From contig CAUJCT010000019.1 in assembly GCA_963169345.1 (NCBI GenBank), forward strand, positions 105,366-169,365: a stretch of 64,000 bases of DNA. Reading direction: 5' to 3'. Position numbers and translations under genes: made by a program. Positions 30,450 to 52,342 of the stretch are shown in pieces (position 1 is the first letter of the stretch; each line of letters begins with the position of its first letter). The stretch comes from Bacteroidota bacterium. GTDB taxonomy: Bacteria > Bacteroidota > Bacteroidia > NS11-12g > UBA955. A model generated the notes under the pieces. It saw only the letters and a program-made list of their open reading frames with translations, did no database searches and was not told the origin of the DNA.

Positions 30450-32153
30450 ATGAAATCAAAAATTAAAACCTTAACTATTTGCGTTTGTGCTTTTTTTACA
30501 TTGAATTCGAACGCACAGAAATGGACCAGAACACTAACCACATCAAATCCGGAGAATGAAGTTGGGATACTAAAGACAAACGATGGCTCAGGATCGTTGA
30601 TCAATGTGTGCAATGTAACTGTAAACGGCCAGAGTGACTTCGTGATCTCAAAGCTAAACAGCGATGGCACAATCAATTGGTCTTACACTTATACGATGAG
30701 TAATGCAAGTGAAGTTATCAATAGTTTTATCCTGGACAGGAACAACGACATAGTCCTTGTCGGATCCACAAATTCTTCTGGGGTTCAAAAAGGGTTGGTG
30801 TTGAAAGTGGATCACACGAATGGTAACATCTTGTTTTCATATAGGACTCAATCAAGTGGTAATAGTGCATATATAAGAAAAGTCATCCAAATGAACTCTG
30901 GTTATTCAGATGATTATGTGATATTGGGAACTGTGAACTATCCTGTAACCAATCTTGTAGCAAGAATAGATGGAAATAATGGCGCAACTATATGGGCGCA
31001 CAATCATAATGTAGTATTGGGGAATACAGATCTTTGGTATACTTTAAATCAAGTCAATAATAATGATATTGTCATTGGAGGGGGCCTGTACAATGGATCA
31101 AATAACGATCATGCTGTCATACATTTGAATCCGTCGAATGGCGGAAGAATTATTATTAAGAGATGGAATATCACGAATGGAACAGCTGCAAATGGCGGAT
31201 TTGATGATGCAGTTGTAATACCGGGGACAGATACTTTGGTCTTAGCATTTGTCCAAAATGGTGGCGGAGCTGCTACAAAGCATGGTTTCGCTATATATGA
31301 TGCTGGAGCTAAGAATCTTGTTTCAGCGAATATCAATTATTTGGGAAGTACAAACACAAGGGCGTTGCGAATAGATTTCAATTCTGACAAACGCGAGCTT
31401 ATGATTGGTGGAGTTTCAGGTGCAACATATAATGATCATTTCATCCAACTGGTTGATATTGATAGCAAGTTGATAAAGTCTTCAGGTAAGTTCGATGGAA
31501 CTATTAACCGTTCAGCATTCAAATTGGCTAATACTTGGGTGAGTTATATTTCTACAAACCAATTCGTGCTAGGTAATACGGTAATCCCGCTAGGCACGTA
31601 TCCGAACGGAAATGAAGTCGTCATATCAATGGTAGGCGGCCCTTTTGTGAGCTGTTACGATAGCATTGATATCTCTAATGACACGTTAGTGATACCAAAT
31701 TCATTCACGACCACCATGGATTCGACGAACCAGACTATAGATTCCGTTAGCTTTAGCAGGGACACCTTTCAGTTTAATGATACATTGCGATGCTATTCCG
31801 ATCAGGATTTAATAAGAAGAGCCCGTTCAAACCAGTACTTGTCCGGAGAGTACGAAAACACGGTCTTCCCATTCCCATTAACAGGCTTACTTAAAGAGGA
31901 GATGCTGACTTTTGAGGTCTATCCGAATCCAAGCAATGGCGCACAAAGCTTGATCTTGGATATTAATAATCTGCTAAATCTTGAAACTATTGTGACAATT
32001 TATGATGCTCAAGGAAACATGGTGTATACCAGCACTATTCCAGGAGATTCATTGAATGTTGATGTCGACGTCAGCATATTAGAAAAAGGTCTATATATTA
32101 TTAAATTAAGCAATTCTCAAAACTCGAGTTATTCGAAAATTCAAATAAATTAG
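30450..32153 (+). CDS. secreted beta-rich protein with T9SS (Por) C-terminal sorting domain
   Basis: Signal peptide. C-terminal FEVYPNPSNGAQSLILD…GLYIIKLSNSQNSSYSKIQIN matches T9SS type-A CTD. Confidence 0.7.
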   Translation: MKSKIKTLTICVCAFFTLNSNAQKWTRTLTTSNPENEVGILKTNDGSGSLINVCNVTVNGQSDFVISKLNSDGTINWSYTYTMSNASEVINSFILDRNNDIVLVGSTNSSGVQKGLVLKVDHTNGNILFSYRTQSSGNSAYIRKVIQMNSGYSDDYVILGTVNYPVTNLVARIDGNNGATIWAHNHNVVLGNTDLWYTLNQVNNNDIVIGGGLYNGSNNDHAVIHLNPSNGGRIIIKRWNITNGTAANGGFDDAVVIPGTDTLVLAFVQNGGGAATKHGFAIYDAGAKNLVSANINYLGSTNTRALRIDFNSDKRELMIGGVSGATYNDHFIQLVDIDSKLIKSSGKFDGTINRSAFKLANTWVSYISTNQFVLGNTVIPLGTYPNGNEVVISMVGGPFVSCYDSIDISNDTLVIPNSFTTTMDSTNQTIDSVSFSRDTFQFNDTLRCYSDQDLIRRARSNQYLSGEYENTVFPFPLTGLLKEEMLTFEVYPNPSNGAQSLILDINNLLNLETIVTIYDAQGNMVYTSTIPGDSLNVDVDVSILEKGLYIIKLSNSQNSSYSKIQIN

Positions 32154-32159
32154 CAAATA

Positions 32160-32190
32160 AAAAGGTCTCAGAAATGAGGCCTTTTTTATT
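32160..32190 (+). terminator. Rho-independent terminator-like hairpin
   Basis: AGGTCTCAgaaaTGAGGCCT imperfect inverted repeat followed by TTTTTT just after the stop at 32153. Confidence 0.5.
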
Positions 32191-32516
32191 CCATACTACT
32201 AAAATTTTAATTGAATAGTGTTTTTCGAATTAATTTAAGAGCAAATTGTTTGAATTTATCATAAAAATGCCTTTACTTTGAGTCAACTATAAATATACTA
32301 AAGCTCAATCTCTTGTTTACAAAGATTTAAATTTAAGGAAATATATCTAAAGACAGATAACATATTTTTAGATGGAAATATATTTATTAGAGATATTTAG
32401 ATTTTTTTAGATCAAAACAATTTACTTAAACATAAAACAAACAATATCATTAACTATAAAAAAGATTAGGCAATAATATGGTTGGTTAACCTAATTGCAT
32501 TTTTACGGAATACAAA

Positions 32517-32948
32517 TCAATAGTTCGATTTTATTATTTTTATTAGTAAGAGGGTGAAAAAGAAACTTGAAAAAAAGCACCAAGTCAAAATGAAAATTAA
32601 AAGGTGTTGCTTATAGTAACCATAATCGGTTAAAAATGGATAAACCAATGTATAAAGAATTGTTATAAACTGTAGCTTTATTGACATAGTAATATAGCTT
32701 AATAATGCAGGAAAATTACCGCTTTCACGAATAAATTTCATTGGTCTAGTGGTCATTGACTGAATCATTGTTAAAATTGTGATGAAAAAGCCTATAAGTG
32801 AGATGAATACCTTGCTTAATTCGCTCAATTTGTCGCAGGACTCTTTGAACATATAAATTCTTTTCTCAAAAACTATTGTACATAAGGTTAGTAAGACGGA
32901 TATAACCAAAGCCCTATATTTCTCCCATATTTTAGCACTTTTACTCAT
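32517..32948 (-). CDS. small membrane protein (3-4 TM), third gene of an unknown 3-gene cassette
   Basis: 143-aa hydrophobic ORF. ATGA overlap with the upstream 192-aa gene. Confidence 0.5.
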   Translation of the reverse strand: MSKSAKIWEKYRALVISVLLTLCTIVFEKRIYMFKESCDKLSELSKVFISLIGFFITILTMIQSMTTRPMKFIRESGNFPALLSYITMSIKLQFITILYTLVYPFLTDYGYYKQHLLIFILTWCFFSSFFFTLLLIKIIKSNY

Positions 32949-33523
32949 TCATTAACTCTTTTATCATAAGTGGCTAATAAATCTTCTCTTTCAAACAAAA
33001 ACATTTTTTCAATTTCGAACATTCTTGCTTTAATAGCAATTTCATTAATGTGTCTTGTATATTCTACATATATCTTTCTTCTCATTACTTCACTAACTAA
33101 ATCAAATGGTTTAAAGTAGTTTCCGTCTTCATCTTGTCCATAGACTTCCATTTTTCCAACCTGTTTCATACCATCTGAATTAAACCGCTTAAACAAATCA
33201 ACTAGACTTCTAAATTTCGGTAGATTCAAATGATTCCCCTTTCCAACGCTTTTATATTCTATTGTAAGTTGATCTGCATTTGTATCCTTACTTGCATCTA
33301 CTATTTGAGAAACACTTTTTTCTTGAGAAGCAAAAATATTGCCATTTGTTACTCTTGCTATTGAGATTTTAAAAGACCTTAGAGTCCTTAATGATTTATA
33401 GTTTTTGAGAATTTTGGGGTCATAAACATTGAGAAATTTAATTTTTTCTTGCAAATTATGACAACGCTTAAAATATTCATAAAACTTTTCTCTAGTAACC
33501 CCATTTTGAATTCTTTCGATCAT
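32945..33523 (-). CDS. hypothetical soluble protein, middle gene of the cassette
   Basis: 192-aa ORF with no family I can assign. Translationally coupled to the downstream membrane protein. Confidence 0.5.
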   Translation of the reverse strand: MIERIQNGVTREKFYEYFKRCHNLQEKIKFLNVYDPKILKNYKSLRTLRSFKISIARVTNGNIFASQEKSVSQIVDASKDTNADQLTIEYKSVGKGNHLNLPKFRSLVDLFKRFNSDGMKQVGKMEVYGQDEDGNYFKPFDLVSEVMRRKIYVEYTRHINEIAIKARMFEIEKMFLFEREDLLATYDKRVNE

Positions 33524-33553
33524 AAGTATTTGCGAATATTCATCATATATGAA

Positions 33554-33907
33554 TTAAGTTGCAAATCCTAAAGATTCTTCATTTGTTAAAGGTAGTTCTT
33601 TGGCTTCCTTTCTAGAAGCATTACTAGCAAGCGGCAAGTTATAATATTTACTATTAATGAATGTGCCTTTGAAATAACCATTTGATGAATACTCTATTTC
33701 ACCCACCTTATAAGTTTGAGGTATCGGAGCAGAATAATCGCCTTGGTTGTTTAATTCTGCCAAAAATAAGTCTTTTAGCTTTTGATTTTCGTTGCTGATT
33801 TTTTTTGAAAATTTCAGCTCATAGAAATCTATTGTGATTTCTTTTGTATTAGCCATTTTCAAATAAATGAAAAAATAGTTAAACAGCAAAATTATTGTAT
33901 AAAACAA
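33554..33907 (-). CDS. small hypothetical protein, first gene of the cassette (true start probably the internal Met at ~33856, MANTKEITIDF…)
   Basis: ORF 117 aa. A hydrophobic N-terminal extension in AT-rich DNA makes the later Met more plausible. Confidence 0.45.
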   Translation of the reverse strand: MFYTIILLFNYFFIYLKMANTKEITIDFYELKFSKKISNENQKLKDLFLAELNNQGDYSAPIPQTYKVGEIEYSSNGYFKGTFINSKYYNLPLASNASRKEAKELPLTNEESLGFAT

Positions 33908-34171
33908 TCATAAATGACTTACAATTAGCTTCATTCTGAGTGTAAACATATTAAATATAGCTGGTTAGACTCAAGTCAAAGTTTTATGTATTTGTAAACA
34001 TAAATTAAATGCCTATAAGAAGAATATAAGAAATACTGTATTTGAAATATTGTTGCTGCTATAAATTACCACATTGACAAAGCACATAACGAAACGTATG
34101 ATGGTACGCTTGACACTGGCGTGGCTGTTGTCCTTTACGTTATGTAGGCTGTGGTAAGCCTTGAGCAGTAA

Positions 34172-34609
34172 TTGATATACAGTTACGCCTTTTTTAATGC
34201 TCAAAATTACCACTATATGAACCCATACTTTACACCACGTCCACCGAAAAGCCTTGGTGCTTCCATTGCTCTTACACTTTTATTTGGTCCATTTGGATTA
34301 TTCTATGCCTCCATTATTGGAGGATTAGTAATGTCATTCCTTGTTCCAATATGTTTAATTGGGATAAGTATCATTTCAGCACAATACAACACAATTGATC
34401 CATACGACTTCCTTATGATTTTATTCAGTTCTTGGATTATCGTTCTAATAATATACTGGCCAATATGCATTGTTTGTGGAGTAGTTGCAGTAGGTAAGTA
34501 TAGCAAGAAAGTGTACTCAGAAGCATCAACTCAAATGTTGTTTGGAAATAATGTCAATAGTCATTCTCAGACAACATCTGTTTCAAACGCTTCTCTCCTT
34601 CAGCAATGA
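34172..34609 (+). CDS. membrane protein, hypothetical
   Basis: 145 aa with 3 hydrophobic segments. Confidence 0.45.
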   Translation: MIYSYAFFNAQNYHYMNPYFTPRPPKSLGASIALTLLFGPFGLFYASIIGGLVMSFLVPICLIGISIISAQYNTIDPYDFLMILFSSWIIVLIIYWPICIVCGVVAVGKYSKKVYSEASTQMLFGNNVNSHSQTTSVSNASLLQQ

Positions 34610-34712
34610 CTGAAAGATAATCCTGGCAAGAATTTGAACGATTACTACAAGAAATCAAAGTAGAATATGGAAGCCGAACATTGATGCATTGGGTCATTAT
34701 CTGATAGAACCT

Positions 34713-35573
34713 CTACAATGGTTCACAATTTCTTAGGTTGTATCGAAATTGAAACTCGTGGCAGTATCTAATCAGATGATGTTTTGAAACCCAATGATAG
34801 ACACCTGTTATACCTCGTTTTAGATGACTCCAAAAACCTTCAATGGTTTTTGTGTGAATTTCAGGATTATCAAAATCAACATACTCTTTAGCCCCATTAT
34901 TGATTACATAATGTTCTCTTCCCTTTCGACTGACTCTTCTGTATCCCATGTGGTCATCAGTCATTACTACCGTTCCATCATTAGTATAACTCTTGGCAAA
35001 TGAAGAAAGCCCTTTAACTCTTTTTACTACTACAACCCTTACATTTCCTCCTCTTTCAACAAATCCAACTACTGGGGTCTTGTTTTCACTAACTAGACCA
35101 CGTTTGCTTCTAACATATCTTTTATTCTTCATCTTTCCACCAACATAGGTCTCGTCTACCTCCACAGTTCCACAAAGTTTTTTCTTGAATTCAGGGTTGT
35201 TGAACATAGCTTTCCTGATTCTATGCAACATAAACCAAGCTGTTGGCTGGGTTACATTAATTTCTCGAGCAAGACCATAGAAAGAAATACCTTTCTTTGA
35301 ATTGATAAAGGTTATTATGGCTCTTAGCTATTTTTGTATTGGAATGTGTGAGTTCTCGAATATTGTTCCCTTTAAAACGCTAAACTGCTTTTTACAGACA
35401 CTACACTTGTATCTATTTACAGTCTTTAAGTACCAGAATTTCTCATAACAGCCACAATGAGGACAGTCTTGATGAGTGTTCCAATGGATTTGACCTAGCT
35501 GTTCGGTACATTGTTCTTCAGATAAATTCGAAATCTCATAGAGATTTTTAAAATGAAATGTTGAGTTAATCAT
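34713..35573 (-). pseudogene. IS1595-family transposase interrupted by a single in-frame TAG (at 35328-35330), an IS remnant
   Basis: N-terminal zinc-ribbon part (CPHCGCYEKFWYLKTVNRYKCSVCKKQFSVLKGTIFENSHIPIQK), TAG, then the same frame continues LRAIITFINSKKGISFYGLAREINVTQPTAWFMLHRIRKAMF… through the DDE domain (TIEGFWSHLKRGITGVYHWVSKHHLIRYCHEFQFRYN). The TAG sits where family members have Trp (KW). Confidence 0.75.
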
Positions 35574-35885
35574 AATTGGTATGGATTATATTTACAATGC
35601 CTAATATTCAATCAATTATTTGATTTATAAAGTTTTACATCAAATATTTTTGAGAAATATTTCTTCTTTCTAAAATCAAAGTTATTACTTCTGTAAAGTA
35701 AGTTTTTCAATGGTATGGATTAGTTGCTTTACGTTTGAGAGAGGCGTTAACGCACCCCTTTCTTTATATAACTTCCCTAACAATATAAAACATCCAACTT
35801 GGTGATTAAGTTGTTAACATTTTTTTTGCAAGACTTGAAAATTGTTTTTTATTTCTTTCTATCTTCGCATCAGTACTCAACGTTG

Positions 35886-36078
35886 ACTCTTTATGACAAG
35901 ATACGCTTGTAAAGAGAACTGAGCCGCCCGACGGGGCACTCCGATGTTGCAAATTATTTCATAAGGTGAGGTCAGCAGTACCGATGGGAAAATTTTCTCT
36001 CACCTGTGTCGACAAAATTAAGTCCTCCATTTGTAAAGGAGGGCCAGAAAGGAAACCCTAGCTAGGTTTCCTTTTTTG
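35886..36078 (+). other. candidate structured non-coding RNA or riboswitch-like leader ending in an intrinsic terminator (36052-36078)
   Basis: Relatively GC-rich and ORF-free. Successive hairpins: CTCTTTA…TAAAGAG, GCCGCCCgacGGGGC, GGTGAG…CTCACC, CCTCCatttgtaaaGGAGG. Terminal GGAAACCctagctaGGTTTCC is followed by TTTTTT, 25 nt before the next ATG. Confidence 0.4.
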
Positions 36079-36107
36079 TTTTTCAAATATTATCGTAGTT
36101 TTGTTAT

Positions 36108-36311
36108 ATGAGTCAAAAATTTAAAACTGGTGACATTGTTCGTTTAAAGTCAGGTGGTCCCAAAATGACAGTTGCTAACACTAAAACGAGCCGAGATATA
36201 CATAATCCAATTATAAATGTATATTGTGCATATTGGGATGAAAACGACCAAACTTTTCGAAACACTGTCTTTATAGAACATATGATAGAACTGGTTCCTG
36301 AAAAAGATTGA
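36108..36311 (+). CDS. DUF2158 (YodC-like) small protein
   Basis: 67 aa. FKTGDIVRLKSGGPKMTV…C.YW motif pattern is typical of this family. Confidence 0.65.
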   Translation: MSQKFKTGDIVRLKSGGPKMTVANTKTSRDIHNPIINVYCAYWDENDQTFRNTVFIEHMIELVPEKD

Positions 36312-36352
36312 TTATTGATATTAAATTTAATCAAGGTTAACCATCCATATTA

Positions 36353-38587
36353 TTGCCAAAGATTATGAAAAAGCAATTCCTAACATTAGTAATAACTCTT
36401 TTGTTTCACACAATAAATGCTCAAAATTTTGATTGGGGCTTTACACTCGGGACATCTCAAAGTGAGGAAGGTTCAAATGTAACCAGAGATGTAAATGGTA
36501 ATGTTTTTATCACTGGACCTTTATTAGGTACACTTGATTTTAACCCTGGTCCTGGAGTCAATAATTTGAGTCTATCAGGTCCTGCATCAATATTTATCGC
36601 AAAATATAATTCAAAAGGTACTTATCAATGGGCTAAAACATTACCTACAAATAACTATGTCATGGCTAAAGATATTGTTACTGATAAATATGGAAATGTG
36701 TATGTTTTAGGGCAGTCAACAGGTGTTATTGATCTTGACCCTGGTTCTGGAACTGTGCTTGATTCTGGATTTTTGTTTTTTATACTTAAATTGAATAGTT
36801 CAGGTCAATATGTTTCGTCTCATGTTTTTAAAACACAACTTCGTGAATTTAATGTTGACCAACTTTGTATGATTCAATTGGGGAAAAATGATAATATATA
36901 TTGTGTTATGAATTATTATCAGAAGATTGATTTGGACCCTGGTCCTGATTCTTTAATACTTGATTCAAAAGCCTTGAGCACATACGTAGTCAAACTTGAT
37001 TCTTCTGGAAGCTTATTATGGGGAGGGAAAATTACTGGAACAAGCGGTATCAATTATATTAATGGGATTGACTTAGATGATGAAGAAAATTTATATTTAA
37101 CCGGAGCATTTCAAACAACTAAGGATTTCGATCTTTTTGGTGGAAATTTAACAATGACTTCGAACGGTCAGTTGGATGCATTTGTGGTGAAATATAATAA
37201 AGATGGAAATCTTATTCATCGGTATTCCATGGGAACTGGTTTAGGTGATAGGGGACAAGCAATTAAAGTCTCTGGTGCCGACTTATATATAAGTGGAAAT
37301 TATACCGGAGGAGGGATTGATTTCGATCCAAGCTCTAGCAGTAAGTCACCTGGAGCGTCAGGTACAATTAATATGTTTTTATTAAAATGGGATACTGCAT
37401 TCAATTATAAGTGGGTTAAGAAAAATGAAGGGGATGCTCAAAATTTTTTAATAAGATATTTAGATGTTAATAGTTGGGGCAATATTACATTAATCGGAAC
37501 TACAGGTGGTATAAGCGTAGACATGGATTTTGACAGTACGAAATTTGCTTATATAAGTACATTTAAAAATTCTGCTTTTGCTTGTAAATATGATTCAAAA
37601 GGAGCTTTAATTTGGATGTCAAGTTTTACTGGAGGTACTAGTAATTCAGATATCAATGTACGAGATGCCTTTGAGGATAATTGGAATAGATTGAGTATTT
37701 GTGGGAATTTTCCATCAATGATCAATATTAATCCATCGGGGTCGACTTTTATAAATACAAATGGTTTCAAAGACATCTTTTTTACAAATCTTCAAAGTAA
37801 TACAACCTATGATACAGCTATTTCATTTTGTGATAGTGTCATTTCACCTAGCGGAAAGTATGTTTGGCTTAGTAGTGGTAAGTATAGCGATACTATACAA
37901 AATGTCAATGGAGGTGATAGTATATTCAGACCCAATTTGACAAATAGAACTCAGTATATGAGCAGTACTATATCAGTCTGTGGACAGTATAAATCACCTT
38001 CGGGGAAGCTATTTAAACAGTCAGGTACTTATTTTGACACAATACCAAACATATATGGCTGTTTCAATTTCCAGACCATCAACCTTACCGTATTGCCCAT
38101 AAGTTATTCAAGCTTAAAAGCTTCCGCTTGCGAATTATACATTTCACCTAGCGGGCGTTATAAATGGTATTCTGGAGGTATTTATACTGATACATTAAAG
38201 AATTATTTCGGATGCGATAGCGTGATTCTAATTGATCTTTCAATCAATAATCCTCAATACGCTTCTATCAAACAAACAGCATGTGGAACTTATACATCTC
38301 CAAGTGGTAAATATACCTATACCTACTCTTTGGTGTTTAAAGATACAATTTCTACGATTGCGGGATGTGATAGCATACTGACTGTCAATTTGACGATTTT
38401 ACCTACTGATAAAGCTGTAGTGCCCGTAAAGGCTTGTGGAACTTATGTTTCTCCAAGTGGCAAGTATATGTGGAACAATAGCGGCACCTATTTTGATACA
38501 CTTAATAATAGTTTCGGTTGCGACAGTATACTAGAAATCAGGCTTGAAATAAACAATTCAGTTTCATCCGTTCTGAATTTCAGCTAA
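36353..38587 (+). CDS. T9SS cargo adhesin-like protein, N-terminal part (SBBP beta-propeller repeats plus 6-7 Cys-containing ~45-aa modules), terminated by an in-frame TAA
   Basis: Signal peptide. DVNGNVFITG / DKYGNVYVLG / DEENLYLTG SBBP-like repeats. Repeated modules C(G/E)(T/L)Y.SPSGKY…G(C)DSI. The frame continues unbroken after TAA 38585-38587 into the next ORF. Confidence 0.6.
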   Translation: MPKIMKKQFLTLVITLLFHTINAQNFDWGFTLGTSQSEEGSNVTRDVNGNVFITGPLLGTLDFNPGPGVNNLSLSGPASIFIAKYNSKGTYQWAKTLPTNNYVMAKDIVTDKYGNVYVLGQSTGVIDLDPGSGTVLDSGFLFFILKLNSSGQYVSSHVFKTQLREFNVDQLCMIQLGKNDNIYCVMNYYQKIDLDPGPDSLILDSKALSTYVVKLDSSGSLLWGGKITGTSGINYINGIDLDDEENLYLTGAFQTTKDFDLFGGNLTMTSNGQLDAFVVKYNKDGNLIHRYSMGTGLGDRGQAIKVSGADLYISGNYTGGGIDFDPSSSSKSPGASGTINMFLLKWDTAFNYKWVKKNEGDAQNFLIRYLDVNSWGNITLIGTTGGISVDMDFDSTKFAYISTFKNSAFACKYDSKGALIWMSSFTGGTSNSDINVRDAFEDNWNRLSICGNFPSMININPSGSTFINTNGFKDIFFTNLQSNTTYDTAISFCDSVISPSGKYVWLSSGKYSDTIQNVNGGDSIFRPNLTNRTQYMSSTISVCGQYKSPSGKLFKQSGTYFDTIPNIYGCFNFQTINLTVLPISYSSLKASACELYISPSGRYKWYSGGIYTDTLKNYFGCDSVILIDLSINNPQYASIKQTACGTYTSPSGKYTYTYSLVFKDTISTIAGCDSILTVNLTILPTDKAVVPVKACGTYVSPSGKYMWNNSGTYFDTLNNSFGCDSILEIRLEINNSVSSVLNFS

Positions 38588-38701
38588 TGTTACGGAGAAA
38601 GTGTCATAGTCGGGAGCAAGTCATACTTCAAGCCGGGCAAATTTCTTGATACCCTTATTACTTTTAACGGATGTGACAGCTTTGTAGAGATTAATATTAA
38701 T

Positions 38702-39181
38702 GTGGCACCGCAAATCGATGTGAACATTGTCAAGGAAGGCAGAATTTTGAGAGCTGTCAAAGGATATGATAGTTATCAATGGCTGAAATGTTACAATGGG
38801 CAATATGCCTTGTTAAATGGCTTTAGCGAAGATTCTTTAAATGCGCCTGAATCTGGTCATTATGCTGTAGAGATTAGGCAGGCTACATGTATGGATAGCT
38901 CTATTTGTATAGAAGTCTTCGAGACCAATATATCAGACTTGAATATCAAGACAGTTCATTTTTACCCTAATCCAGCTGAATCCTTCGTTCATATTGAATC
39001 GGACAGAGTGATTGTGGGCGTTGAACTTATAGCTGCGGATGGTAGACGTTACGTGGTTGAAGTAATTCCAGGAATGTTACTTAATATAGAACTTGGAGAA
39101 TTTGAATCTGGGATTTACACTTTGGTGTTGCGATTGTCTGACAAAGAATTCATCATGAGACAACTTAGTGTTCTTAGGTAA
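38702..39181 (+). CDS. C-terminal continuation of the preceding gene carrying the T9SS C-terminal sorting domain (same reading frame, separated only by one TAA)
   Basis: 38588-38701 in the same frame encodes another repeat module (CYGESVIVGSKSYFKPGKFLDTLITFNGCDSFVEINI). The C-terminus VHFYPNPAESFVHIESDRV…GIYTLVLRLSDKEFIMRQLSVLR is a T9SS CTD. Confidence 0.55.
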   Translation: MAPQIDVNIVKEGRILRAVKGYDSYQWLKCYNGQYALLNGFSEDSLNAPESGHYAVEIRQATCMDSSICIEVFETNISDLNIKTVHFYPNPAESFVHIESDRVIVGVELIAADGRRYVVEVIPGMLLNIELGEFESGIYTLVLRLSDKEFIMRQLSVLR

Positions 39182-42103
39182 TCATCTTAAGAGTGTTATG
39201 CTCACCTTCTGACTCTGTATGCCTCCTCGTTTTGGGATGATGAAGATGACGCATATATAAACTCCCTGCTCGCAATCTTCACCTTTATAGGTGCCGTCCC
39301 AGCCCTGGTTGACGTCCTCGCTGTAAAATACTCTCTCACCCCAGCGGTTGTATATCTCCATACGGTATTTGTTCACGAATGGAGTGACTTGTGGCTTGTA
39401 TACATCATTGACTCCATTGCCATCCGGTGAGAAGCAATCTGGAATTAACAGTCTTATTTCAGTGTAAAGTGTGCCAGTTTGCTTTATGGCAGTATCCTTG
39501 CACCCTTCGGAATTGGTAACGACCAAAGTAATCATTCTACTGTTGGTATCCTCGAAACCTATCGTCGGACTTTTCTCGGAACTTTCGGAAACTTGGTCAA
39601 ATATCCATTTCCATTGTTTGACCCCTACGCTAGAAAGGTCGTTCATCTGGAATTCTGCCGTGTTGAACTTGGTGTCAGGTAACCGGATATAACTGAAATT
39701 GGCTTCTGGTTTTGGATAAACTACGACTTGTTGATCCGTCGTATCCTTGCATCCAAAACTGTCTGTGACTATAAGTCTGACATTGTACTTGCCCTGACTT
39801 CCAAATTGATGAGATACTTGTTCGTTGGTTTCGAATCCCCCATCGTTAAAATCCCAATAAAAACTGTTATTACTTTTTGTTCCGAATGAACTGGAACTCT
39901 CAAGTCGAATTCTCTCTGGGAAACAGACCGTGTCCGAGCCAAACCTAGCAACAGGAGGTTCAAGAACGCGCAATGGTAATTGAGCAGTATCCTTGCATCC
40001 GTTTTCAGATTCTGTTTTTAATTTTATCAGGTAATCTCCAAAATTGGAGTAGCTGTAATTTAGGTTGTTGGATGTGAAGTTCTTGCCATCTCCAGTTTGC
40101 CAGTCAAATCCCAATAGATTAACTGTTGAGTCTAAAATGGAGACTTTTAAATTAAACAGATTTCCTTCCAGGCATTGTGTGTCCTTTAGTGGGTTGATGA
40201 TTTTGGTAACACCATACTTTTCAAGTAAAATGTCTTTTGATACCGTGTCCTTGCATCCAAATTTATTTGAAACGATTAATTTGAATATATGTTTGCCAAA
40301 TTCCTTGGTTATCCAATCATTGATTCCTTCAGCATTTCCAATTGAATCAGTATCATAATACCAAGTATAGTCCACCGAATCATAAGCTTTGATGGTCTGG
40401 TCTGTAAGGTTGAAGCTGTTTGAATTTTGACATTGTGCACTGTCATTTATAGAGAATCTGGCAATCGGGTGCCTTAAGACTGCGATTTCCTTTTCTGTCG
40501 TGTCGGTACATGAGTGTTTCGAAAGTGCAATAAGCTTTACAGTGTAATCACCATAAGACAAATATCTATGTGTTGGGGATTTAGCGGTATCTTCTTGCAG
40601 GTCGCCAAAGTCCCACCGATAATTTAAATTTCCTGTTGATATTGTGGATGTATTCAGATAGTCAAATTGGTTGCCTTTGTAACATTGCGAATCTTTGTTT
40701 GTTTGAAAGAAAGCTACTGGATGCTCAGCAACCAGCACAGATTTCGAAATCGTGTCGTAACAATTGGTCAGGTATGAGTAGGCAATCAGTTGAACATTTT
40801 TGATGCCTGTATTTGAATAGTTGATGGTCTTTGTTGTCAATCCGATAGATGAATCTCCATTGCCATAATCCCAATAGTAGCTGAGCGTGTTCATCGCGCT
40901 GAACGTTGTCGCACTCGTAAAATCAAAGGAATTGCCGTTGAAGCACTGAATAGTGTCATTAATTGTAAACTGGGATATTGGTCGTTCAAGAAGACTGATA
41001 GGATGACTAGCTGAATCTCGACATCCATTTTCAGTTTCAACAACGTACCAAAGTGTATAATTATCGGATTTGTTAGGGTAGAATTTTGATGCGGGTTTGA
41101 AGGCTGTATCCTGAGTTCCATCCCCGAATTTCCATGTGCTCGACAATTTGCCGTATTTGAGTTTGGAGTTGTTTAGGATTTTAAATTCATTCTTTTGCCA
41201 GCATTGTGAATCGTTTGGTATGGTGAAATCTATGACAGGAAAAGCAAAAGTTATGGCAGGCTGAATTAAAGTATCTGAACAGCCGTTATCCGCCCAAGAT
41301 ACAAGCCTTACAGAAAAAGTATCCTCCGTTATAAACGAATGTGAAAACAAATTGGCTGTAGATGCAAACCCATCAGATAATTTCCAGTCAAGAAATAGGA
41401 TTGAATCATCGGTTGTCTCTGTCCTATCAATAAAATTGAACAGATTCTCTTTGAAACATTGCTTGTCTTTGTCGATGTCGAAGTTTGCTTTGGGGTTGGC
41501 TTTTATCATCACTGAATGATAAAAGGTGTCTTTGCATCCATTTGTGTTCTCAGTTTGGAGCCTTATCGATTTTTTACCAGAACTTGGGAATTTCAAATTT
41601 TCAATAGATAATGAAGTATCCGATACAAAGGTATCCAAATGCCAATGGAAACTTGACAGATTAGTGCCAGATAATCGGTTGGCCTGTATAGTGAAGTTGT
41701 TTTCATTCAGACATTGCGTGTCCTTGTTGATTGACAAGTTGAGTTCAGAATTCTCAAACACTTTGACTATTCTATCAGAAGTATCTGGACAACCGAAAAA
41801 ACTCTTGGTTATGAGTCTGATTTTAAATGTTCCCGAATCCTTGTATTGTTTAGTGCAAATCGTATCATTAGAGTTCGTTCCATCGCTAAAGTCCCAGCTT
41901 ACCATCCCTTTTTGGTCACCTAAAACTCTGCTAGTGTCAACGAGATAAAAAGCGCTTGTCCTTTGGCACATCACGGTATCTGAAATTGTAAATCCCGCAT
42001 ATACTTTAGGTTGCAACACAACGATGGTATCCTTGCCGACACAATTGGCGCTATCTGTAGCTTTCAGAATGTATTGTCCGGGCTTGTTGACAAAAATATT
42101 CAC
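39182..42103 (-). CDS. PKD-repeat surface protein with gliding-motility/T9SS type-B C-terminal domain, the C-terminal part of a split gene
   Basis: About 10 PKD-like ~85-aa modules (…GCKDT/GCSDT/GCRDS…). C-terminal CFSPDGNGVNDVYKP…YNRWGERVFYSEDVNQGWDGTYKG…GVYICVIF. It has no signal peptide of its own and begins at GTG directly after the upstream ORF's TAA in the same frame. Confidence 0.6.
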   Translation of the reverse strand: MNIFVNKPGQYILKATDSANCVGKDTIVVLQPKVYAGFTISDTVMCQRTSAFYLVDTSRVLGDQKGMVSWDFSDGTNSNDTICTKQYKDSGTFKIRLITKSFFGCPDTSDRIVKVFENSELNLSINKDTQCLNENNFTIQANRLSGTNLSSFHWHLDTFVSDTSLSIENLKFPSSGKKSIRLQTENTNGCKDTFYHSVMIKANPKANFDIDKDKQCFKENLFNFIDRTETTDDSILFLDWKLSDGFASTANLFSHSFITEDTFSVRLVSWADNGCSDTLIQPAITFAFPVIDFTIPNDSQCWQKNEFKILNNSKLKYGKLSSTWKFGDGTQDTAFKPASKFYPNKSDNYTLWYVVETENGCRDSASHPISLLERPISQFTINDTIQCFNGNSFDFTSATTFSAMNTLSYYWDYGNGDSSIGLTTKTINYSNTGIKNVQLIAYSYLTNCYDTISKSVLVAEHPVAFFQTNKDSQCYKGNQFDYLNTSTISTGNLNYRWDFGDLQEDTAKSPTHRYLSYGDYTVKLIALSKHSCTDTTEKEIAVLRHPIARFSINDSAQCQNSNSFNLTDQTIKAYDSVDYTWYYDTDSIGNAEGINDWITKEFGKHIFKLIVSNKFGCKDTVSKDILLEKYGVTKIINPLKDTQCLEGNLFNLKVSILDSTVNLLGFDWQTGDGKNFTSNNLNYSYSNFGDYLIKLKTESENGCKDTAQLPLRVLEPPVARFGSDTVCFPERIRLESSSSFGTKSNNSFYWDFNDGGFETNEQVSHQFGSQGKYNVRLIVTDSFGCKDTTDQQVVVYPKPEANFSYIRLPDTKFNTAEFQMNDLSSVGVKQWKWIFDQVSESSEKSPTIGFEDTNSRMITLVVTNSEGCKDTAIKQTGTLYTEIRLLIPDCFSPDGNGVNDVYKPQVTPFVNKYRMEIYNRWGERVFYSEDVNQGWDGTYKGEDCEQGVYICVIFIIPKRGGIQSQKVSITLLR

Positions 42104-43621
42104 TTAAGACTGACCAGTACTCCATTCATGTTTAGCAAAAGGCTTTCCTGGTCGCAAGATTAGAAAAATCTGATTGCAAAATGCTGTATCATTTCCCAAT
42201 ATTGGCTTTGGATCTTTAATTTCAATTTTCTTAACAAATGAGTCCTTGTATCCTGAATAAAAAAAGTAAGCCTTTACAGTATAATAACCAGCCTTAGTAT
42301 AGATATGCGTGGCACCATACTTGTTTTTTGATGAATTAAGAATTCCAGAAATGGTATCACCAAAATCCCAAACTGTTGAGTCTAGGTTCTCAGTTTTTGA
42401 CAAGGTAAATTGCGTTGTGTCGTTGTTGCAATTGCGCCAATAGTTAAAGATTCGTTTAATGAAAAAAGACTGAGTGAATGCTGGCAGTCCGAGCTGGGTC
42501 TTACCCTTGGCTAAGGTAATTTGACTCCTTACAAAGTTTACATTGGCAGCATTAGTATCCGGTTTGTTGATGCATGACAAGTATGTCACAATGAACTGGG
42601 ACATATAAATTTTATTATCTGGACCGAGCTGAAGACTTCCAAAAGTGCCGTTTATTACGCTATCAATTACAACCCTAGAATTTCTAAATGCGGTGCTAGA
42701 AGTGGCCAGCGCATTATATTGAACTAGCTTCGCCTGTCCATGATCCGTCAAGTACAAGTATTTACCATTCGGAGAAAACTCGGCACCGTAACCATATCGA
42801 AATGGGAATTTCCAAACATTACTGACTTGGCCTGTAGCGCTATTGAAATTACCAATTACTGCTGTATCCTTGTTGTAGTTCACTGCAACGAACTTTTTGC
42901 CGTTTCCCGAAACCTTTAAGGCTCCTATCATCGAATAACCACCGTTGATATAAAGTCCAGTCCTAGAGTATACTGGCGTAGTGTTTACACCCAATGAATT
43001 CACTTTGTATGCCGCTATGGAATCAGATTTGTATTTGTATGCAAGTATCCAAAATTCCCTACCGTTAGCATGACTAACGGCAGTCAGTTTCTCACAAACA
43101 GGCGTCAAAAGTTTCGTGTTTTTGGAACTCACAACAACATCACCTCTCCCAGAATCCAATCTCATATCAACGATACTGTATGTCATACCGTCATCACGCC
43201 CAAGATCCTGAACACAAAATATGAAATACAGGCTTGGACTATCAGGATATGGCACGATGATGGCGGATTGAGTAGAAGAAGCATTTCCTAATAAGTCGTA
43301 TCCATTAGGCATTTTCTTATGAATGCTGTCATACACATTTACACCGTCTGTATAAAAAAGCAATCTGCCAGTGCCAGTGCTTATTGAGGCACAACCTTCA
43401 TAAGTTTTCATGGCGCTGTTTGTCATGGAGGTAAGAGTCCCAGAATTGAAACTTATTGCCCCATATTCGCCAAAATACCAATTGTTGGCCTCTTTTTGAG
43501 CTTGTAAATTCACAGCGAATGCTAAAGCTAAAAAAAACACAAAATACTTTGAATAGCCAAACTCACACTTCTTATTATCAAGTGATTGAATTAACAATTG
43601 TATTTTCCATAAACACCGCAT
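42104..43621 (-). CDS. N-terminal part (signal peptide plus beta-rich domain) of the same split T9SS protein
   Basis: 505-aa ORF with a signal peptide (KYFVFFLALAFAVNLQAQ). Its stop TAA (42104-42106) abuts the GTG of the downstream ORF in frame. Confidence 0.6.
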   Translation of the reverse strand: MRCLWKIQLLIQSLDNKKCEFGYSKYFVFFLALAFAVNLQAQKEANNWYFGEYGAISFNSGTLTSMTNSAMKTYEGCASISTGTGRLLFYTDGVNVYDSIHKKMPNGYDLLGNASSTQSAIIVPYPDSPSLYFIFCVQDLGRDDGMTYSIVDMRLDSGRGDVVVSSKNTKLLTPVCEKLTAVSHANGREFWILAYKYKSDSIAAYKVNSLGVNTTPVYSRTGLYINGGYSMIGALKVSGNGKKFVAVNYNKDTAVIGNFNSATGQVSNVWKFPFRYGYGAEFSPNGKYLYLTDHGQAKLVQYNALATSSTAFRNSRVVIDSVINGTFGSLQLGPDNKIYMSQFIVTYLSCINKPDTNAANVNFVRSQITLAKGKTQLGLPAFTQSFFIKRIFNYWRNCNNDTTQFTLSKTENLDSTVWDFGDTISGILNSSKNKYGATHIYTKAGYYTVKAYFFYSGYKDSFVKKIEIKDPKPILGNDTAFCNQIFLILRPGKPFAKHEWSTGQS

Positions 43622-43775: not shown

Positions 43776-46700
43776 TTATTTAAATTGCGTTTTATCTATT
43801 GCAATAATGCATGAAGATATCATTTCATCAAGTGTATTTGAAAATTGACAGTTCTCAATTAGCCATTCAATTTGCTTACTTGATATTGTGACGTTTTTGT
43901 GCGAAAGGTCTTTAAGTGTGTAAATTTTTCTAACTCTTGATTTTTGGCCTTTTAATTTATCTAATTCTGGTATAAGTATTTCTAGCCAAAGATCTGCGAA
44001 TTGATCTAAGTCGACATAAAGATCATCTTCAGTTTCAGGATTAAATAAATTTAATAATTTTTCGGCATTTAATTTGTCTTTCCCTGAGAGTGAATTAACT
44101 TTTAAATTGTGATTTAATATATTTTCTCCTTGATTTAATGCTCTTCTTTTTTTCCATGGCAACAATTGCTTCTCTTGACTTCGTAGTTTTCTAATTATGT
44201 CCTTTAGCTTTTGTGAAGTATCAATTTCTTTCCAATTTCGTTGAACAATGGTTGTTTTTGACAAGTATGATTTAAGTAAATAAGTAATGTCAGAAAAATC
44301 TGTGTAACCTTTGTTATTTTCATCAATCAATAACCATTTTGGACTTTTTCGGGTACTTCCTCTAAAGGAAAAGAAACACCAATTTTTGTCGGTTTCAATA
44401 AAACTGATAGCTGTCTTAACGGTTGAATCAACATCTTTGTAAAGATCATAAATAGCATGGTCTATTAGTGCGCTTTCCCCTTCTATAAGGCCATATAAAT
44501 CTTGTGTGCTATCCCTTACGCCTTCCCATTCATAATCACTACTTGAATATTCTGTGTAAGCTTCAATAATATTTTGAGTACTCAAACTATTTTTGAGATA
44601 TTTCTCATAAATGACTTTAGGTATTCCTACATTGTTTCCAATTAAATCTTCTGTAAGCAATAAAGTGTCTATTATCCTTCTGTCGCCGTTTAAGGAGAAT
44701 TCTTCAGAATCATTTGGCCACATTACTGTAATTTCATTATGTTCGCAATCCATCCTTTCAATACGGCCAATACGCTGTTCAATAACCCTAAGTACGCTTG
44801 GCATGTCTAGTAAGATAAGACAGCTGGAATCTTGAAGATTAATCCCTTCAGACATAGCATCAGAACAAAAAGCAATCAACTTTTCTTTTGAATGATTTTC
44901 TAGTGAAAACAGCTTCATTACTTCGGTTCTGTCTTTGCTGTTATGTCCTGCTGCAACAATGGTTTTAAATTGGGGATTTCTTTCTTGAAGTAACTTGTTT
45001 AAGTAATCAAGTGTGATTACTGTTGAATCAAAAGCTAATATCTTGTTATGCTCTTCTAAAGCCTTAATAATGGTATCGATCTTACTAATTTCTCGATTTT
45101 TACTTAATTGATTTACAAGTCTTCCAATTTTTTCATATATTTCAATCTCTTTGTCACATGTAGTTTTATACAATGTCTCATCATATAACCAATGATAACT
45201 TTCTTGTAAAAGTCTTTTATCTATAAACATTTTAGGCACTATGTTTTTAAGTTTTTTTACCTTTCCAATCATATCACCTGATAAGTTTTTAGTAGAGTTT
45301 AGTCCAAATTCTTGATTAGCGGCATTTGTCCCATATAAGTATTCATGAATGGCACATTGGGAAGATCTCAATTTTACCCTAACCATATAGGCTGCTAATG
45401 CTGTTGCTGAAGTAAACCTTTGGTTAATATAATTAACCATTTCTTCATCTCCTTTAATAAAATTTGGGATTTTGATTCTTTGCAAATAATGAATTCCTTT
45501 CAATTTGGATGTCAATGTTGAAATTTGCATCCCAATTTTTTTGTCAGAGACTGTCTCATTAGTTTCATAAACGATTGAATTTGTTTTCGGGTACTTACAA
45601 ATATGCCCTAACCTATTAGTATATAATTTTGGAGATCGTTCAATCATTTTATTCAGTTCTTTTTTCGTTCGACGAACTATAAACTGATTCACATATTTTT
45701 TAAGTTGCTCAAGGTGCTGTTTGTTAATGCCCTTTTTTCTTTTCTTCCTTAACTCAAAATAAGTTTTTAAATCGTCGTCACTAAGGTTATCAATATCAAG
45801 AAGTTCAATTAATCTCAAAATATCATCTATTTTTTTATTGATGGGGGTTGCGGTTGACAAAATTACATTACATGAACCTTTTGGAATAATTGCTTTACTT
45901 CTTTTAGAATGAGGATGAAGGTAATTATGAGCTTCATCAATAACCAATATATCAGAACTATGGATAGCCTTTTGGATATTCCTTTGATTTTTATCCAAGC
46001 CAAGACTTAATTTCCCCATTGATTCAATTTTATTATAAAGCACAAAATGTTCCTGTTCTCTTTCCCAATTTTCAATAACAGTTTTAGGACAAATTATTAA
46101 CGCATTTGAACGATCCTTTCTACCATTTTCCCATAGCCAATGAAACAATGTATAAGCAAGAGCCGTAGCAAATTTAGTTTTCCCACTTCCTGTTGGGTCA
46201 GCTATTAGTACTCGTCCTTGATCTTGGATAATTTTCATTGCTCGCGCTATTCCCATTTTTTGAGAAGGCCACAATTTATGGGTTATTAAAGCTTGATAAA
46301 GAACAGGATAATCTTTCATCCATTTGCTTTCTAAAATTTCAGAAATCGCTCTGGCTAAAGCCTCTTGCCAGGTTGCTTCTTTGAATAATTTACTAAATAA
46401 TTCAATCAGGTGGTAGTTATAATCATCGGATATAGTATAATAATATTCAGCTATTCGTTTAATATCTGAATATTGCTCTTTTTCCTTTTTAGACGAAGAA
46501 CTTTGAATTCTAATGTTTGCTTCTGTTTGTAAAATAGTTCCTGATTTGCTAAAATTGGATGAACCCAATATGGCTGTTTCGTCACCTATATATATTTTTG
46601 CATGGAGTTTATCCCTTACTTTAAATTCTATACAATTATTATTGATTTTCTCAATAATATTAAGAACAGAACCACATAGTTTTAAACTAACATTTTGCTT

Positions 46701-47009
46701 TACCCAATAATTTTTTATCTCGGTTGGAAGTGAATAGTGAGGAAGTCGAGCGCTCACTCTCTCATCAGGATCAAAGCCTATTACAATTCGAAGCTTTTTT
46801 AACTTTGGATAATCATTAACTCCAAAAACATCTATTAAATTGGATAAGGAAGTAAATCCTGTAAGTATTAAATAATTCTCTGAATTTTGAATGTCCTTTA
46901 AAAGCAAATCTTTGACTCTTCGATCTTGTTCCTTAAGATTTAAAGGAAAATCTTCTTGATTTGGCAAGTCAAGTTTATAGTTAAAGTCGAATAGATTAGG
47001 TGTTTTCAT
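43776..47009 (-). CDS. PLD-family (HKD) nuclease domain fused to an SF2 (DEAH-type) helicase with ~320-aa C-terminal unknown domain, a candidate single-protein defence gene
   Basis: HKD motif HAKIYIGDETAILGSSNFS (res ~136-154). Helicase motif I LIADPTGSGKT, Ia LIICPKT, II VIDEAHNY, III ILSTATP, V FCSDAMSEGINLQ, VI QRIGRIER. Confidence 0.85.
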   Translation of the reverse strand: MKTPNLFDFNYKLDLPNQEDFPLNLKEQDRRVKDLLLKDIQNSENYLILTGFTSLSNLIDVFGVNDYPKLKKLRIVIGFDPDERVSARLPHYSLPTEIKNYWVKQNVSLKLCGSVLNIIEKINNNCIEFKVRDKLHAKIYIGDETAILGSSNFSKSGTILQTEANIRIQSSSSKKEKEQYSDIKRIAEYYYTISDDYNYHLIELFSKLFKEATWQEALARAISEILESKWMKDYPVLYQALITHKLWPSQKMGIARAMKIIQDQGRVLIADPTGSGKTKFATALAYTLFHWLWENGRKDRSNALIICPKTVIENWEREQEHFVLYNKIESMGKLSLGLDKNQRNIQKAIHSSDILVIDEAHNYLHPHSKRSKAIIPKGSCNVILSTATPINKKIDDILRLIELLDIDNLSDDDLKTYFELRKKRKKGINKQHLEQLKKYVNQFIVRRTKKELNKMIERSPKLYTNRLGHICKYPKTNSIVYETNETVSDKKIGMQISTLTSKLKGIHYLQRIKIPNFIKGDEEMVNYINQRFTSATALAAYMVRVKLRSSQCAIHEYLYGTNAANQEFGLNSTKNLSGDMIGKVKKLKNIVPKMFIDKRLLQESYHWLYDETLYKTTCDKEIEIYEKIGRLVNQLSKNREISKIDTIIKALEEHNKILAFDSTVITLDYLNKLLQERNPQFKTIVAAGHNSKDRTEVMKLFSLENHSKEKLIAFCSDAMSEGINLQDSSCLILLDMPSVLRVIEQRIGRIERMDCEHNEITVMWPNDSEEFSLNGDRRIIDTLLLTEDLIGNNVGIPKVIYEKYLKNSLSTQNIIEAYTEYSSSDYEWEGVRDSTQDLYGLIEGESALIDHAIYDLYKDVDSTVKTAISFIETDKNWCFFSFRGSTRKSPKWLLIDENNKGYTDFSDITYLLKSYLSKTTIVQRNWKEIDTSQKLKDIIRKLRSQEKQLLPWKKRRALNQGENILNHNLKVNSLSGKDKLNAEKLLNLFNPETEDDLYVDLDQFADLWLEILIPELDKLKGQKSRVRKIYTLKDLSHKNVTISSKQIEWLIENCQFSNTLDEMISSCIIAIDKTQFK

Positions 47010-47476: not shown

Positions 47477-47536
47477 ATAAATGCAAAGTTATATCTAAAA
47501 TGACAAAAAAACAACTTAAGTTGCAGATAATTAGGT

Positions 47537-52340: not shown

Positions 52341-52342
52341 AT

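Follow-up and report, generated by a model that had tools for sequence, protein, structure and literature searches.

A premature TAA in a T9SS adhesin-like gene of a Bacteroidota bacterium, probably a recent nonsense pseudogene, beside a defunct IS1595-type transposon

Introduction

Bacterial nonsense pseudogenes are known from accessory and surface-protein genes beside IS insertions, and the locus considered here resembles them in several ways: a single stop in the gene of interest, intact orthologues, a recognisable open remnant, a mobile element at the 5′ end, and neighbouring accessory genes that are disrupted too. Bacterial pseudogenes often arise through small indels. Here there are six stop substitutions and no frameshift, which is somewhat unusual for a set of pseudogenes.

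The gene itself compares well with the T9SS cargo proteins that have a type A C-terminal domain (CTD; Por_Secre_tail/TIGR04183), in encoding a signal peptide, then a propeller of SBBP type, repeat modules and an Ig-like domain, and at the C-terminus a predicted beta-sandwich in which YPNP and GIY motifs occur. It differs from them in that its CTD is cut from the body by a stop, and in that the profile scores of the CTD are just under the curated cut-offs. Such a domain is required for T9SS secretion (PMC10202324). The adjacent mobile element shares with the IS1595 family a PF12760 Zn-ribbon, an ISXO2-like DDE domain (PF12762), inverted repeats of ~24 nt and an 8-bp duplication, but at 3.9 kb it is distinguished by four extra ORFs and a transposase inactivated by two stops.

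Is the stop one that ribosomes are meant to pass? Selenocysteine UGA, TAG- or TGA-recoded phages and suppressor tRNAs are the obvious precedents, and the likeness to them is of an in-frame stop in a conserved ORF, with several such stops side by side. The differences are that the stop here is the main terminator, TAA, and is conserved in no homologue, that all three stop codons are involved, at positions with differing ancestral residues, and that the window has no recoding element or tRNA nearby. (By the window is meant the whole 64,000-nucleotide stretch of DNA analysed.)

The interrupted gene

The adhesin-like gene has 938 codons, of which codon 741 is an in-frame TAA. Its parts are as follows.

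36365..38584, plus strand: upstream part of the adhesin-like gene, 740 codons, assigned from its translation, with weak SBBP and LipL53-family SBBP matches, and colinear with the homologue P0002
38585..38587, plus strand: premature stop TAA, a sense codon in homologues and identical in seven read-set assemblies
38588..39181, plus strand: remnant past the stop, 197 codons, predicted to be untranslated, covering Cys module six, an Ig-like domain and a probable T9SS type A CTD

The frame opens at ATG 36365, the TTG at 36353 being a mechanical ORF start only and not the start of the adhesin gene. The 740 residues encoded ahead of the stop begin with a Sec-type signal peptide, recognised by eye from the translation without a predictor (MKKQFLTLVITLLFHTINA, with QN following the cleavage point), and continue with SBBP-like beta-propeller repeats and five Cys-bounded modules of ~45 amino acids, the consensus of which is C..Y.SPSGKY.W..SG.Y.DTL.N..GCDS. 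The TAA, which has T at +4, directly precedes the first Cys, an invariant one, of the sixth and final module in this series. Beyond it the frame stays open for 197 more codons until the conserved natural TAA at 39179-39181. With the base composition of the window the chance of such a stop-free continuation is ~3.5e-7, and segments of 197 codons or longer number 27 among the 7,853 stop-to-stop segments in the six frames of the whole window. That the TAA splits a gene whose frame then continues, open for 38 codons, into ORF 38702-39181 had been pointed out in the initial annotation, and is borne out by the sequence: there is no in-frame ATG, GTG or TTG between 38588 and 38701, which is why the listed downstream ORF begins at GTG 38702, a first start that lies inside a domain. 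The translation of 38588-39181 has no signal peptide.

The downstream piece has YPNP...GIY motifs, and residues 126-189 of its 197 are matched by both PF18962 (E=2.4e-4, 21.7 bits against a cut-off of 27) and TIGR04183 (E=5.9e-4, 19.8 bits against a curated cut-off of 23). An AF2 model of it is all-beta (mean pLDDT 86), with a confident beta-sandwich; a PDB fold search with the C-terminal model gave generic Ig-like matches only, none of them CTD-specific. Further CTD proteins are encoded in the window at 30450-32153 and 55655-57265, and there is also the CHU_C protein dealt with below, while T9SS core genes are absent from the window. Since secretion by the T9SS needs the CTD (PMC10202324), the 740-residue product would not be exportable.

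Homologues

The closest homologue, P0002, is one uninterrupted protein of 938 amino acids, a length identical to that of the joined frame, and is colinear with it across the site at 51% identity. In 15 further homologues there is also a sense residue at the stop column, before the invariant Cys; the residues found there are P, A, S, T, Y or Q, and the closest, L004, has CCT. The initial annotation had looked to orthologues for a sense codon at this position, which P0002 and the 15 others supply, and had allowed for their being two separate genes, the second with its own signal peptide. They are single genes. No homologue has a stop at the adhesin column, nor do homologues have one at the PKD, DUF6731 or transposase sites described below. 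The L008 and L004 orthologues end where the window adhesin ends, with the C-terminus aligned, and a relative-rate count within the CTD gave 8 unique changes for the window gene and 7 for L008. As there is no extra divergence downstream of the stop, the lesion is young.

Homologues with both PF06739 and PF18962 exist in their hundreds, and the protein search yielded none closer than 51%. A scan of GTDB species representatives for a near-identical strain with an intact allele gave only a 29% relative. Comparison of dN/dS upstream and downstream of the stops was uninformative, synonymous sites being saturated against every homologue.

Is the stop in the DNA?

A single-base lesion within an otherwise perfect ORF is just the pattern to be expected of a sequencing or assembly error in a gene that is really intact, and scepticism on this score was built into the initial annotation, where read support for the TAA was called for. 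However, Logan assemblies of the seven runs covering the codon (ERR10643333 and those ending in 34, 35, 37, 39, 40 and 41) match the window over it at 100% identity; these independent assemblies agree base for base, and the stop is no sequencing artefact. Moreover, among 5.8 billion clustered proteins there is no intact adhesin allele, the sole close match being the 740-residue truncated form. That exact product is called in public assemblies, as is, also as a gene, the downstream piece. The transposase TAG and the PKD TAA are likewise covered by assemblies of several runs. That the TAA is an error is thus a proposition to which we give hardly any credence.

Six premature stops in five genes

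The adhesin sits in a 10.7-kb patch of decaying accessory genes. Between 32.9 and 43.6 kb there are six premature stops (3 TAA, 2 TAG and 1 TGA) in five neighbouring genes, four of the six being inside an IS1595-type transposon and the other two in the adhesin and in a convergent PKD/CHU_C gene. The density, 6 in ~3,400 codons, is to be set against 0 in 15,140 elsewhere in the window, two giant genes included; arithmetic from these codon counts gives ~4e-5 for random placement of all six in the patch. Three otherwise intact genes within 8 kb, each with exactly one stop, was the initial tally. The other two stops it comprised, TAA 42104-42106 and TAG 35328-35330, both on the minus strand, do exist, but the count was too low and the span too short, and 'exactly one' does not hold for the transposase, which has a second TAG and has lost its natural stop. 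The transposon that holds four of the six had gone unrecognised. Same-frame neighbours at 7100, 26465 and 59892 were also considered as interruptions, and are ordinary gene boundaries instead.

All six disrupting lesions are substitutions to stop, with no frameshift among them. The ancestral codons that can be deduced at the stops are TCA/TCR (Ser) and TGG (Trp), and the mutation types are mixed: C to A and G to A occur, together with at least one change that took more than a single step. The genes of the patch have no excess of amino-acid divergence. As a counterpoint to regarding them as pseudogenes, lesions that are all stops would also fit a setting in which stops are partly tolerated.

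The transposon at the adhesin start

32469..36357 (3,889 bp), no strand assigned: IS1595-family transposon with passenger genes, defunct and single-copy, delimited by inverted repeats and target duplication
32154..32468, plus strand: native upstream region of the adhesin, now parted from its ATG by the transposon, from reconstruction of the empty site
34554..35573, minus strand: IS1595 transposase pseudogene (Zn-ribbon and DDE), from profile matches and alignment with nine IS1595 transposases
34217..34663, plus strand: small membrane-protein gene, convergent with the transposase gene, with TGA at 34607-34609
32945..33856, minus strand: passenger gene encoding DUF6731, interrupted by TAA at 33554-33556 (codon 101 of 303)

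The terminal inverted repeats, GGCAATAATATGG(T/A)TGGTTAACCT, are of 24 nt, match at 23 of the 24 positions, and are at 32469-32492 and 36334-36357. Outside them is a target-site duplication, AAAGATTA, at 32461-32468 and 36358-36365; its 8 bp are the norm for the IS1595 family (ISfinder), and the chance of such a flank match is ~3e-5. In the right AAAGATTA copy the last base is the A of the adhesin ATG, which the right end of the transposon abuts. Insertion was exactly at the start codon, and has parted the adhesin from the sequence natively upstream of it; when 32468 is joined to 36366, the reconstructed empty site reads ...AAAAAAGATT-ATG-AAAAAG. The transposon was found in one genomic context only. 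A related, intact element of 2.9 kb in L007 shares these inverted repeats, is flanked by a duplication of 9 bp and encodes an uninterrupted 323-residue transposase.

The window copy is dead: three of its genes contain four premature stops between them. Its transposase (PF12760, E=5.3e-11; PF12762, E=4.8e-36) is not uninterrupted: TAG 35328-35330 replaces an invariant Trp (TGG in L007), TAG 34713-34715 replaces an Asp (GAT in L007), and the ancestral TAA terminator is now TCA (34635-34637), with the frame extending to 34554. In the membrane-protein gene, the TGA stands where the L007 homologue has Trp, and 17 conserved codons (LKDNPGKNLNDYYKKSK) follow it in frame. At the DUF6731 stop, P0247, a 302-residue homologue with gapless 66% identity, has Ser (TCG). 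The four extra ORFs encode a 143-residue protein, the DUF6731 protein, the small membrane protein and a DUF2158 protein; a PADLOC scan of the 143-residue and DUF6731 proteins gave no match. The DUF2158 gene, in the right end of the transposon, is directed into the adhesin, with no terminator-like site detected in the interval. Because neither a sigma-70 scan nor one for the Bacteroidota -7 motif TAnnTTTG rose above chance, no promoter is claimed.

The convergent PKD/CHU_C gene

39182..43621, minus strand: gene of 1,479 codons for a PKD-repeat protein carrying a T9SS type B (CHU_C) sorting domain, interrupted by TAA at 42104-42106 (codon 506)

At the position of this stop orthologues have Ser, encoded by TCA in L008 (77% identity) and by AGC in L004 (56%), and the lesion is TCA to TAA. 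In both L004 and L008 the gene also adjoins the adhesin. The relative-rate comparison gave unique-change counts of 59 for the window gene and 64 for L008.

Discussion

The TAA at 38585 is, very probably, a recent nonsense substitution that has made a pseudogene of a single 938-codon T9SS cargo gene. The initial annotation had offered this or read-through; the former has been strengthened by the intact orthologues and by the presence of the stop in seven assemblies, and positive support for the latter did not emerge. What read-through proposes is that the stop is passed or suppressed, for instance by a tRNA-Ser with anticodon UUA or another suppressor tRNA (such as one inserting Ser at ochre or amber codons), or through leaky termination, with some full-length adhesin being exported, the neighbouring genes, like the adhesin, still being expressed at a reduced level, and the strain tolerating nonsense but not frameshifts. 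Such tolerance would account for the lesions being stops in six cases out of six and frameshifts in none, and for homologues having Ser at two of the three TAA sites; that the parts downstream of the stops have not diverged faster fits with it too, as does the bias in natural terminators, TGA being used by 4 of 5 in the stop cluster vs 4 of 29 elsewhere (Fisher p = 0.007). Yet TAA terminates 22 of the 34 window genes, often directly ahead of the start of the next gene, and it terminates the adhesin itself; internal stops are absent from the 15,140 other window codons. With TGA and TAG also among them, in place of Trp and Asp, the stops cannot be accommodated by one rule of recoding. As to context, U at +4 is reported to lower read-through (PMC5289835), and the TAA-T here favours termination; there is no stimulatory structure after the stop, the downstream 115 nt folding no better than shuffles (z = +1.12), and the window lacks tRNA genes. 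With the stop absent from all homologues as well, both suppression of the adhesin stop and continued reduced expression of the group seem very unlikely.

A split that is functional, in which the 740-residue propeller and repeat protein has a periplasmic role of its own, or the 159-residue downstream ORF is expressed separately, gains something from retention of the signal peptide on the upstream piece and from public assemblies having both pieces called as genes. No homologue has that architecture though, the cut interrupts the series of repeats just one residue ahead of an invariant Cys, and the downstream ORF starts with a GTG within a domain and specifies a product that, as it has no signal peptide, could not reach the T9SS. 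That neighbouring genes are broken in the same way points to decay instead, and we regard a functional split as highly improbable. A further issue is why the stops are clustered. A local burst of base substitution over ~10 kb, as distinct from simply relaxed selection, would leave the adhesin a pseudogene all the same, and might be traced to error-prone repair or recombination near the inserted transposon, or to damaged incoming DNA. The concentration of the stops (~4e-5), their being substitutions to the exclusion of indels, and the lack of excess amino-acid divergence in the patch genes are all consistent with it. Against it, the mixture of mutation types described above amounts to no single mutational signature, four of the stops belong to a single dead mobile element, in which decay would be expected in any case, and, with synonymous sites saturated, there was no relative at >90% nucleotide identity by which local substitution density could be gauged. 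Such a burst is, on balance, unlikely.

Apart from these, some forms of recoding were looked for in the window and set aside. Reassignment of a stop codon is discounted by TAA, TAG and TGA all serving as terminators there. Neither a suppressor tRNA nor a known recoding RNA is in the window, which has no Rfam matches. Termination-reinitiation at the TAATG overlap would involve an ATG in another frame that, as read from the sequence, opens only ~20 codons.

To return to the nonsense pseudogene, how might it have come about? The intact ancestor would have had the signal peptide, SBBP propeller, six Cys modules, Ig-like domain and type A CTD. Selection on three adjacent units may then have been relaxed, possibly beginning with the transposon insertion, and substitutions biased from G/C to A/T would have given the stops. 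Translation would now halt after 740 residues, leaving the final 197 codons untranslated, and the product would pass to the periplasm via Sec but not be displayed, because the CTD that the T9SS needs is absent from it.

Beyond correct annotation the importance is little. A single pseudogene is the right annotation for ORFs 36365-38587 and 38702-39181; the fragments of the PKD/CHU_C, DUF6731, membrane-protein and transposase genes need the same treatment, and the 3.9-kb transposon should be marked. Were read-through to be true after all, it would be a rare, naturally occurring instance of nonsense suppression in Bacteroidota. As it stands, the locus is a small, clean example of IS insertion at a start codon accompanied by loss of both a surface adhesin and the partner gene beside it.

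The interrupted adhesin frame

The codon at 38585-38587 (+) reads TAA in frame with ATG 36365, and it does split the adhesin gene as the initial annotation had proposed: 740 residues are encoded up to it, after which the frame stays open for 197 codons and closes at TAA 39179-39181, a continuation whose chance, by composition, is about 3.5e-7. The earlier ORF of 36353-38587 was right as to its end and not as to its start, TTG 36353 being merely the first possible start past the preceding stop that an ORF lister would take. The 38 start-less codons described between the stop and the downstream ORF are real, the earliest in-frame ATG, GTG or TTG past the stop being GTG 38702.

Parts of the adhesin gene
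32154-32468: native upstream region, now separated from the start codon by a mobile element
36365 up to TAA 38585-38587, +: upstream part, 740 residues; Sec-type signal peptide, SBBP-like propeller repeats, five Cys-bounded modules
After that TAA, to 39179-39181, +: downstream part, 197 codons; sixth Cys module, Ig-like domain, C-terminal domain

The C-terminal domain of the remnant matches the T9SS type A signal just below the curated cut-off, both for PF18962 (E=2.4e-4) and for TIGR04183 (E=5.9e-4). The AF2 prediction for the 197 remnant residues is of high confidence (mean pLDDT 86) and all-beta; searched against the PDB, it matched generic Ig-like domains in tandem, among them fragments of GhpA, the grappling-hook protein of Aureispira, and nothing specific to CTDs. 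Lacking a signal peptide, the downstream piece could not get to the T9SS by itself, and as the CTD is required for T9SS secretion (PMC10202324) the 740-aa product would be expected to remain in the periplasm.

Authenticity and ancestry of the stop

Is the stop genuine? Logan assemblies contain the exact 740-aa product as well as the downstream ORF of 159 aa, and contigs from seven different runs (ERR10643333, 34, 35, 37, 39, 40 and 41) are 100% identical to the window over the TAA. A protein search of 5.8 billion clusters recovered the truncated 740-aa form and no near-identical full-length allele. Given the seven-run identity and that search, assembly error is very unlikely; the sampled population carries the stop.

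The closest homologue, P0002, is a single 938-aa protein of 51% identity that matches the joined frame exactly in length, is colinear across the stop site and has Pro (CCT) where the stop falls. When 15 further homologues are aligned, the stop column contains P, A, S, T, Y or Q, and the next position is a Cys that never varies, the first one of its module. The orthologue comparison that had been suggested thus gives a sense residue throughout, and the arrangement that would have told against a split gene, a pair of genes of which the second has its own signal peptide, is not seen: all 16 homologues compared here, P0002 included, are undivided at that point. The position is variable, and the alignment fixes no single ancestral codon; TCA, CAA and TAY each lie one step from TAA.

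Extent of the nonsense cluster

Within 8 kb, three genes had been noted with a single stop apiece; those three stops exist, and they are an undercount, the full tally being six stops spread over five genes from 32.9 to 43.6 kb.

Premature stops in the patch
Stop 1: 33554-33556, -, TAA in the DUF6731 gene (32945-33856); Ser (TCG) in P0247
Stop 2: 34607-34609, +, TGA in a small membrane protein gene (34217-34609); Trp in the L007 homologue
Stop 3: 35328-35330, -, TAG in the IS1595 transposase; replaces an invariant Trp (TGG in L007)
Stop 4: 34713-34715, -, second TAG in the IS1595 transposase; Asp (GAT) in L007
Stop 5: 38585-38587, +, TAA in the adhesin; variable residue in homologues
Stop 6: 42104-42106, -, TAA in the PKD/CHU_C (T9SS type B) gene; Ser in L008 and L004

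The comparisons are with P0247, a 302-aa DUF6731 homologue (66% identity, ungapped), and with homologous DNA in L004, L007 and L008. Past the membrane-protein TGA 17 conserved codons continue in frame, and conserved sequence likewise continues past TAG 34713-34715; the ancestral TAA terminator of the transposase has been lost, 34635-34637 now being TCA. The codon at stop 6 is TCA in L008 (77% identity) and AGC in L004 (56% identity, ungapped). Outside the patch there is no internal stop in 27 ORFs (15,140 codons). Same-frame ORF junctions at 7100, 26465 and 59892 were considered as interruptions and rejected as ordinary gene boundaries.

A transposon at the adhesin start

Stops 1-4 all lie within one mobile element, and it is this transposon that accounts for most of the cluster. 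A 27-nt inverted repeat pair resolves to 24-nt terminal repeats, GGCAATAATATGG(T/A)TGGTTAACCT, at 32469-32492 and 36334-36357, with an 8-bp direct repeat, AAAGATTA, matching perfectly on either side (32461-32468 and 36358-36365; a flank match with a chance of about 3e-5). With a transposase of Zn-ribbon and ISXO2-like DDE domains, these features identify the transposon at 32469-36357 (3,889 bp) as a member of the IS1595 family; its four passenger ORFs are those for a 143-aa protein, DUF6731, the small membrane protein and DUF2158. A related 2.9-kb element in L007 (ENA ERZ534009) shares these inverted repeats, comes with a duplication of 9 bp and encodes a transposase of 323 aa that is intact. 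Among the runs the window's element has one genomic context only.

The right copy of AAAGATTA ends on the A of the adhesin ATG, and removal of the element in silico restores ...AAAAAAGATT-ATG-AAAAAG..., which places the insertion exactly between the adhesin's upstream region and its start codon. The DUF2158 gene, at the right end, is oriented into the adhesin; no terminator-like site was found between the two, and promoter scans were uninformative.

Pseudogene, read-through or suppression

Both a pseudogene and read-through had been offered for the adhesin. The 16 unsplit homologues favour the former. For programmed read-through the stop is unconserved, its context is not leaky and no stimulatory structure accompanies it: the following base is T, and PMC5289835 reports that a +4 U reduces bacterial read-through; the RNA 3′ of the stop gives no more stable a fold than its shuffled versions do (z = +1.12). 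The natural end of the gene is also TAA, with a conserved C-terminus, at the same position as in the L008 and L004 orthologues.

A wider proposal is that nonsense codons are partly tolerated, by read-through or by suppression, e.g., by a Ser-inserting suppressor tRNA. Three weak signals point that way: all six lesions are substitutions to stop codons, with no frameshift in alignments of the five interrupted genes; Ser is the residue replaced at two of the three premature TAA sites; and natural terminators in the patch (32517-43621) are rich in TGA, 4/5 vs 4/29 elsewhere (post-hoc Fisher test, p = 0.007), with TAA at the end of the PKD and 143-aa genes in relatives (L008, L004, L014). That excess may be due to chance or to a different origin of the segment. 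Against such tolerance, TAA is routinely used as a terminator (22 of 34 window genes, with TGA in 8 and TAG in 4), one premature stop is TGA, the premature TAGs stand at Trp and Asp positions, and the other 15,140 codons are free of internal stops; we consider it highly improbable. The window has no tRNA gene and no Rfam match. A pseudogene is very probably the right reading.

History of the patch

The patch consists of three adjoining units, namely a dead transposon, the adhesin that it hit and the adhesin's partner gene, all of them probably under relaxed selection. Inferable ancestral codons changed from G/C to A/T (TCA to TAA, TCR to TAA, TGG to TAG and TGG to TGA), and a local burst of substitution mutagenesis is an unlikely additional cause of the clustering. 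A relative-rate test of the adhesin was feasible since L008, the closer relative, carries the orthologue's end: over 88 C-terminal residues there are 8 window-unique vs 7 L008-unique changes (outgroup L004), with no sign of decay downstream of the stop, which suggests that the mutation is young or, less likely, that the region is still selected. Counts for the PKD gene (59 vs 64) and the transposase (15 vs 30) likewise give no excess amino-acid change, so that all lesions appear recent relative to divergence from the nearest available relatives, saturation of synonymous sites against all of these meaning that dN/dS cannot date them more finely.

The PKD/CHU_C gene adjoins the adhesin in L004 and L008 also, and from this conserved adjacency the two products may work together. 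The two genes are in tandem in L004 (Logan ERR14847261) and convergent in L008 (JGI 3300048834) and in the window, the locus having been rearranged among lineages.

Other features of the window

Two giant genes, 7115-14293 (2,392 codons) and 15131-26467 (3,778 codons), are intact, only the second having a Pfam match (RHS repeat); small family-less ORFs follow each, a layout that recalls polymorphic toxin/immunity loci. Between 2672 and 4056 there is 1.4 kb without an ORF of at least 80 codons, a tRNA or an Rfam match, overlapping a bin (2001-4000) of about 27% GC. The stretch 43776-52754, possibly an integrative element or a defence island, includes a PLD-SNF2 helicase of 1,077 aa (PADLOC similarity to the helicases DpdE, DrmD and BrxH), an HTH_17 protein, three family-less ORFs and a tyrosine integrase (51117-52340); a pair of 60-nt direct repeats that contain internal hairpins lies at 52576-52754. 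A copper-handling cluster at 55655-63900 (-), all of its genes intact, encodes a T9SS CTD protein, a multicopper oxidase, TRASH and DUF3347 proteins, an HMA protein and a P-type ATPase with HMA domains.

Meaning of the interruption

The adhesin belongs, in disrupted form, to the very large SBBP-repeat family of T9SS type A cargo; its neighbour is a type B cargo protein (PKD/CHU_C), likewise disrupted, and the inserted element an IS1595 family member with passenger genes. The overall picture is one of routine IS-associated pseudogenisation of accessory surface-protein genes, and its practical outcome is a corrected annotation.
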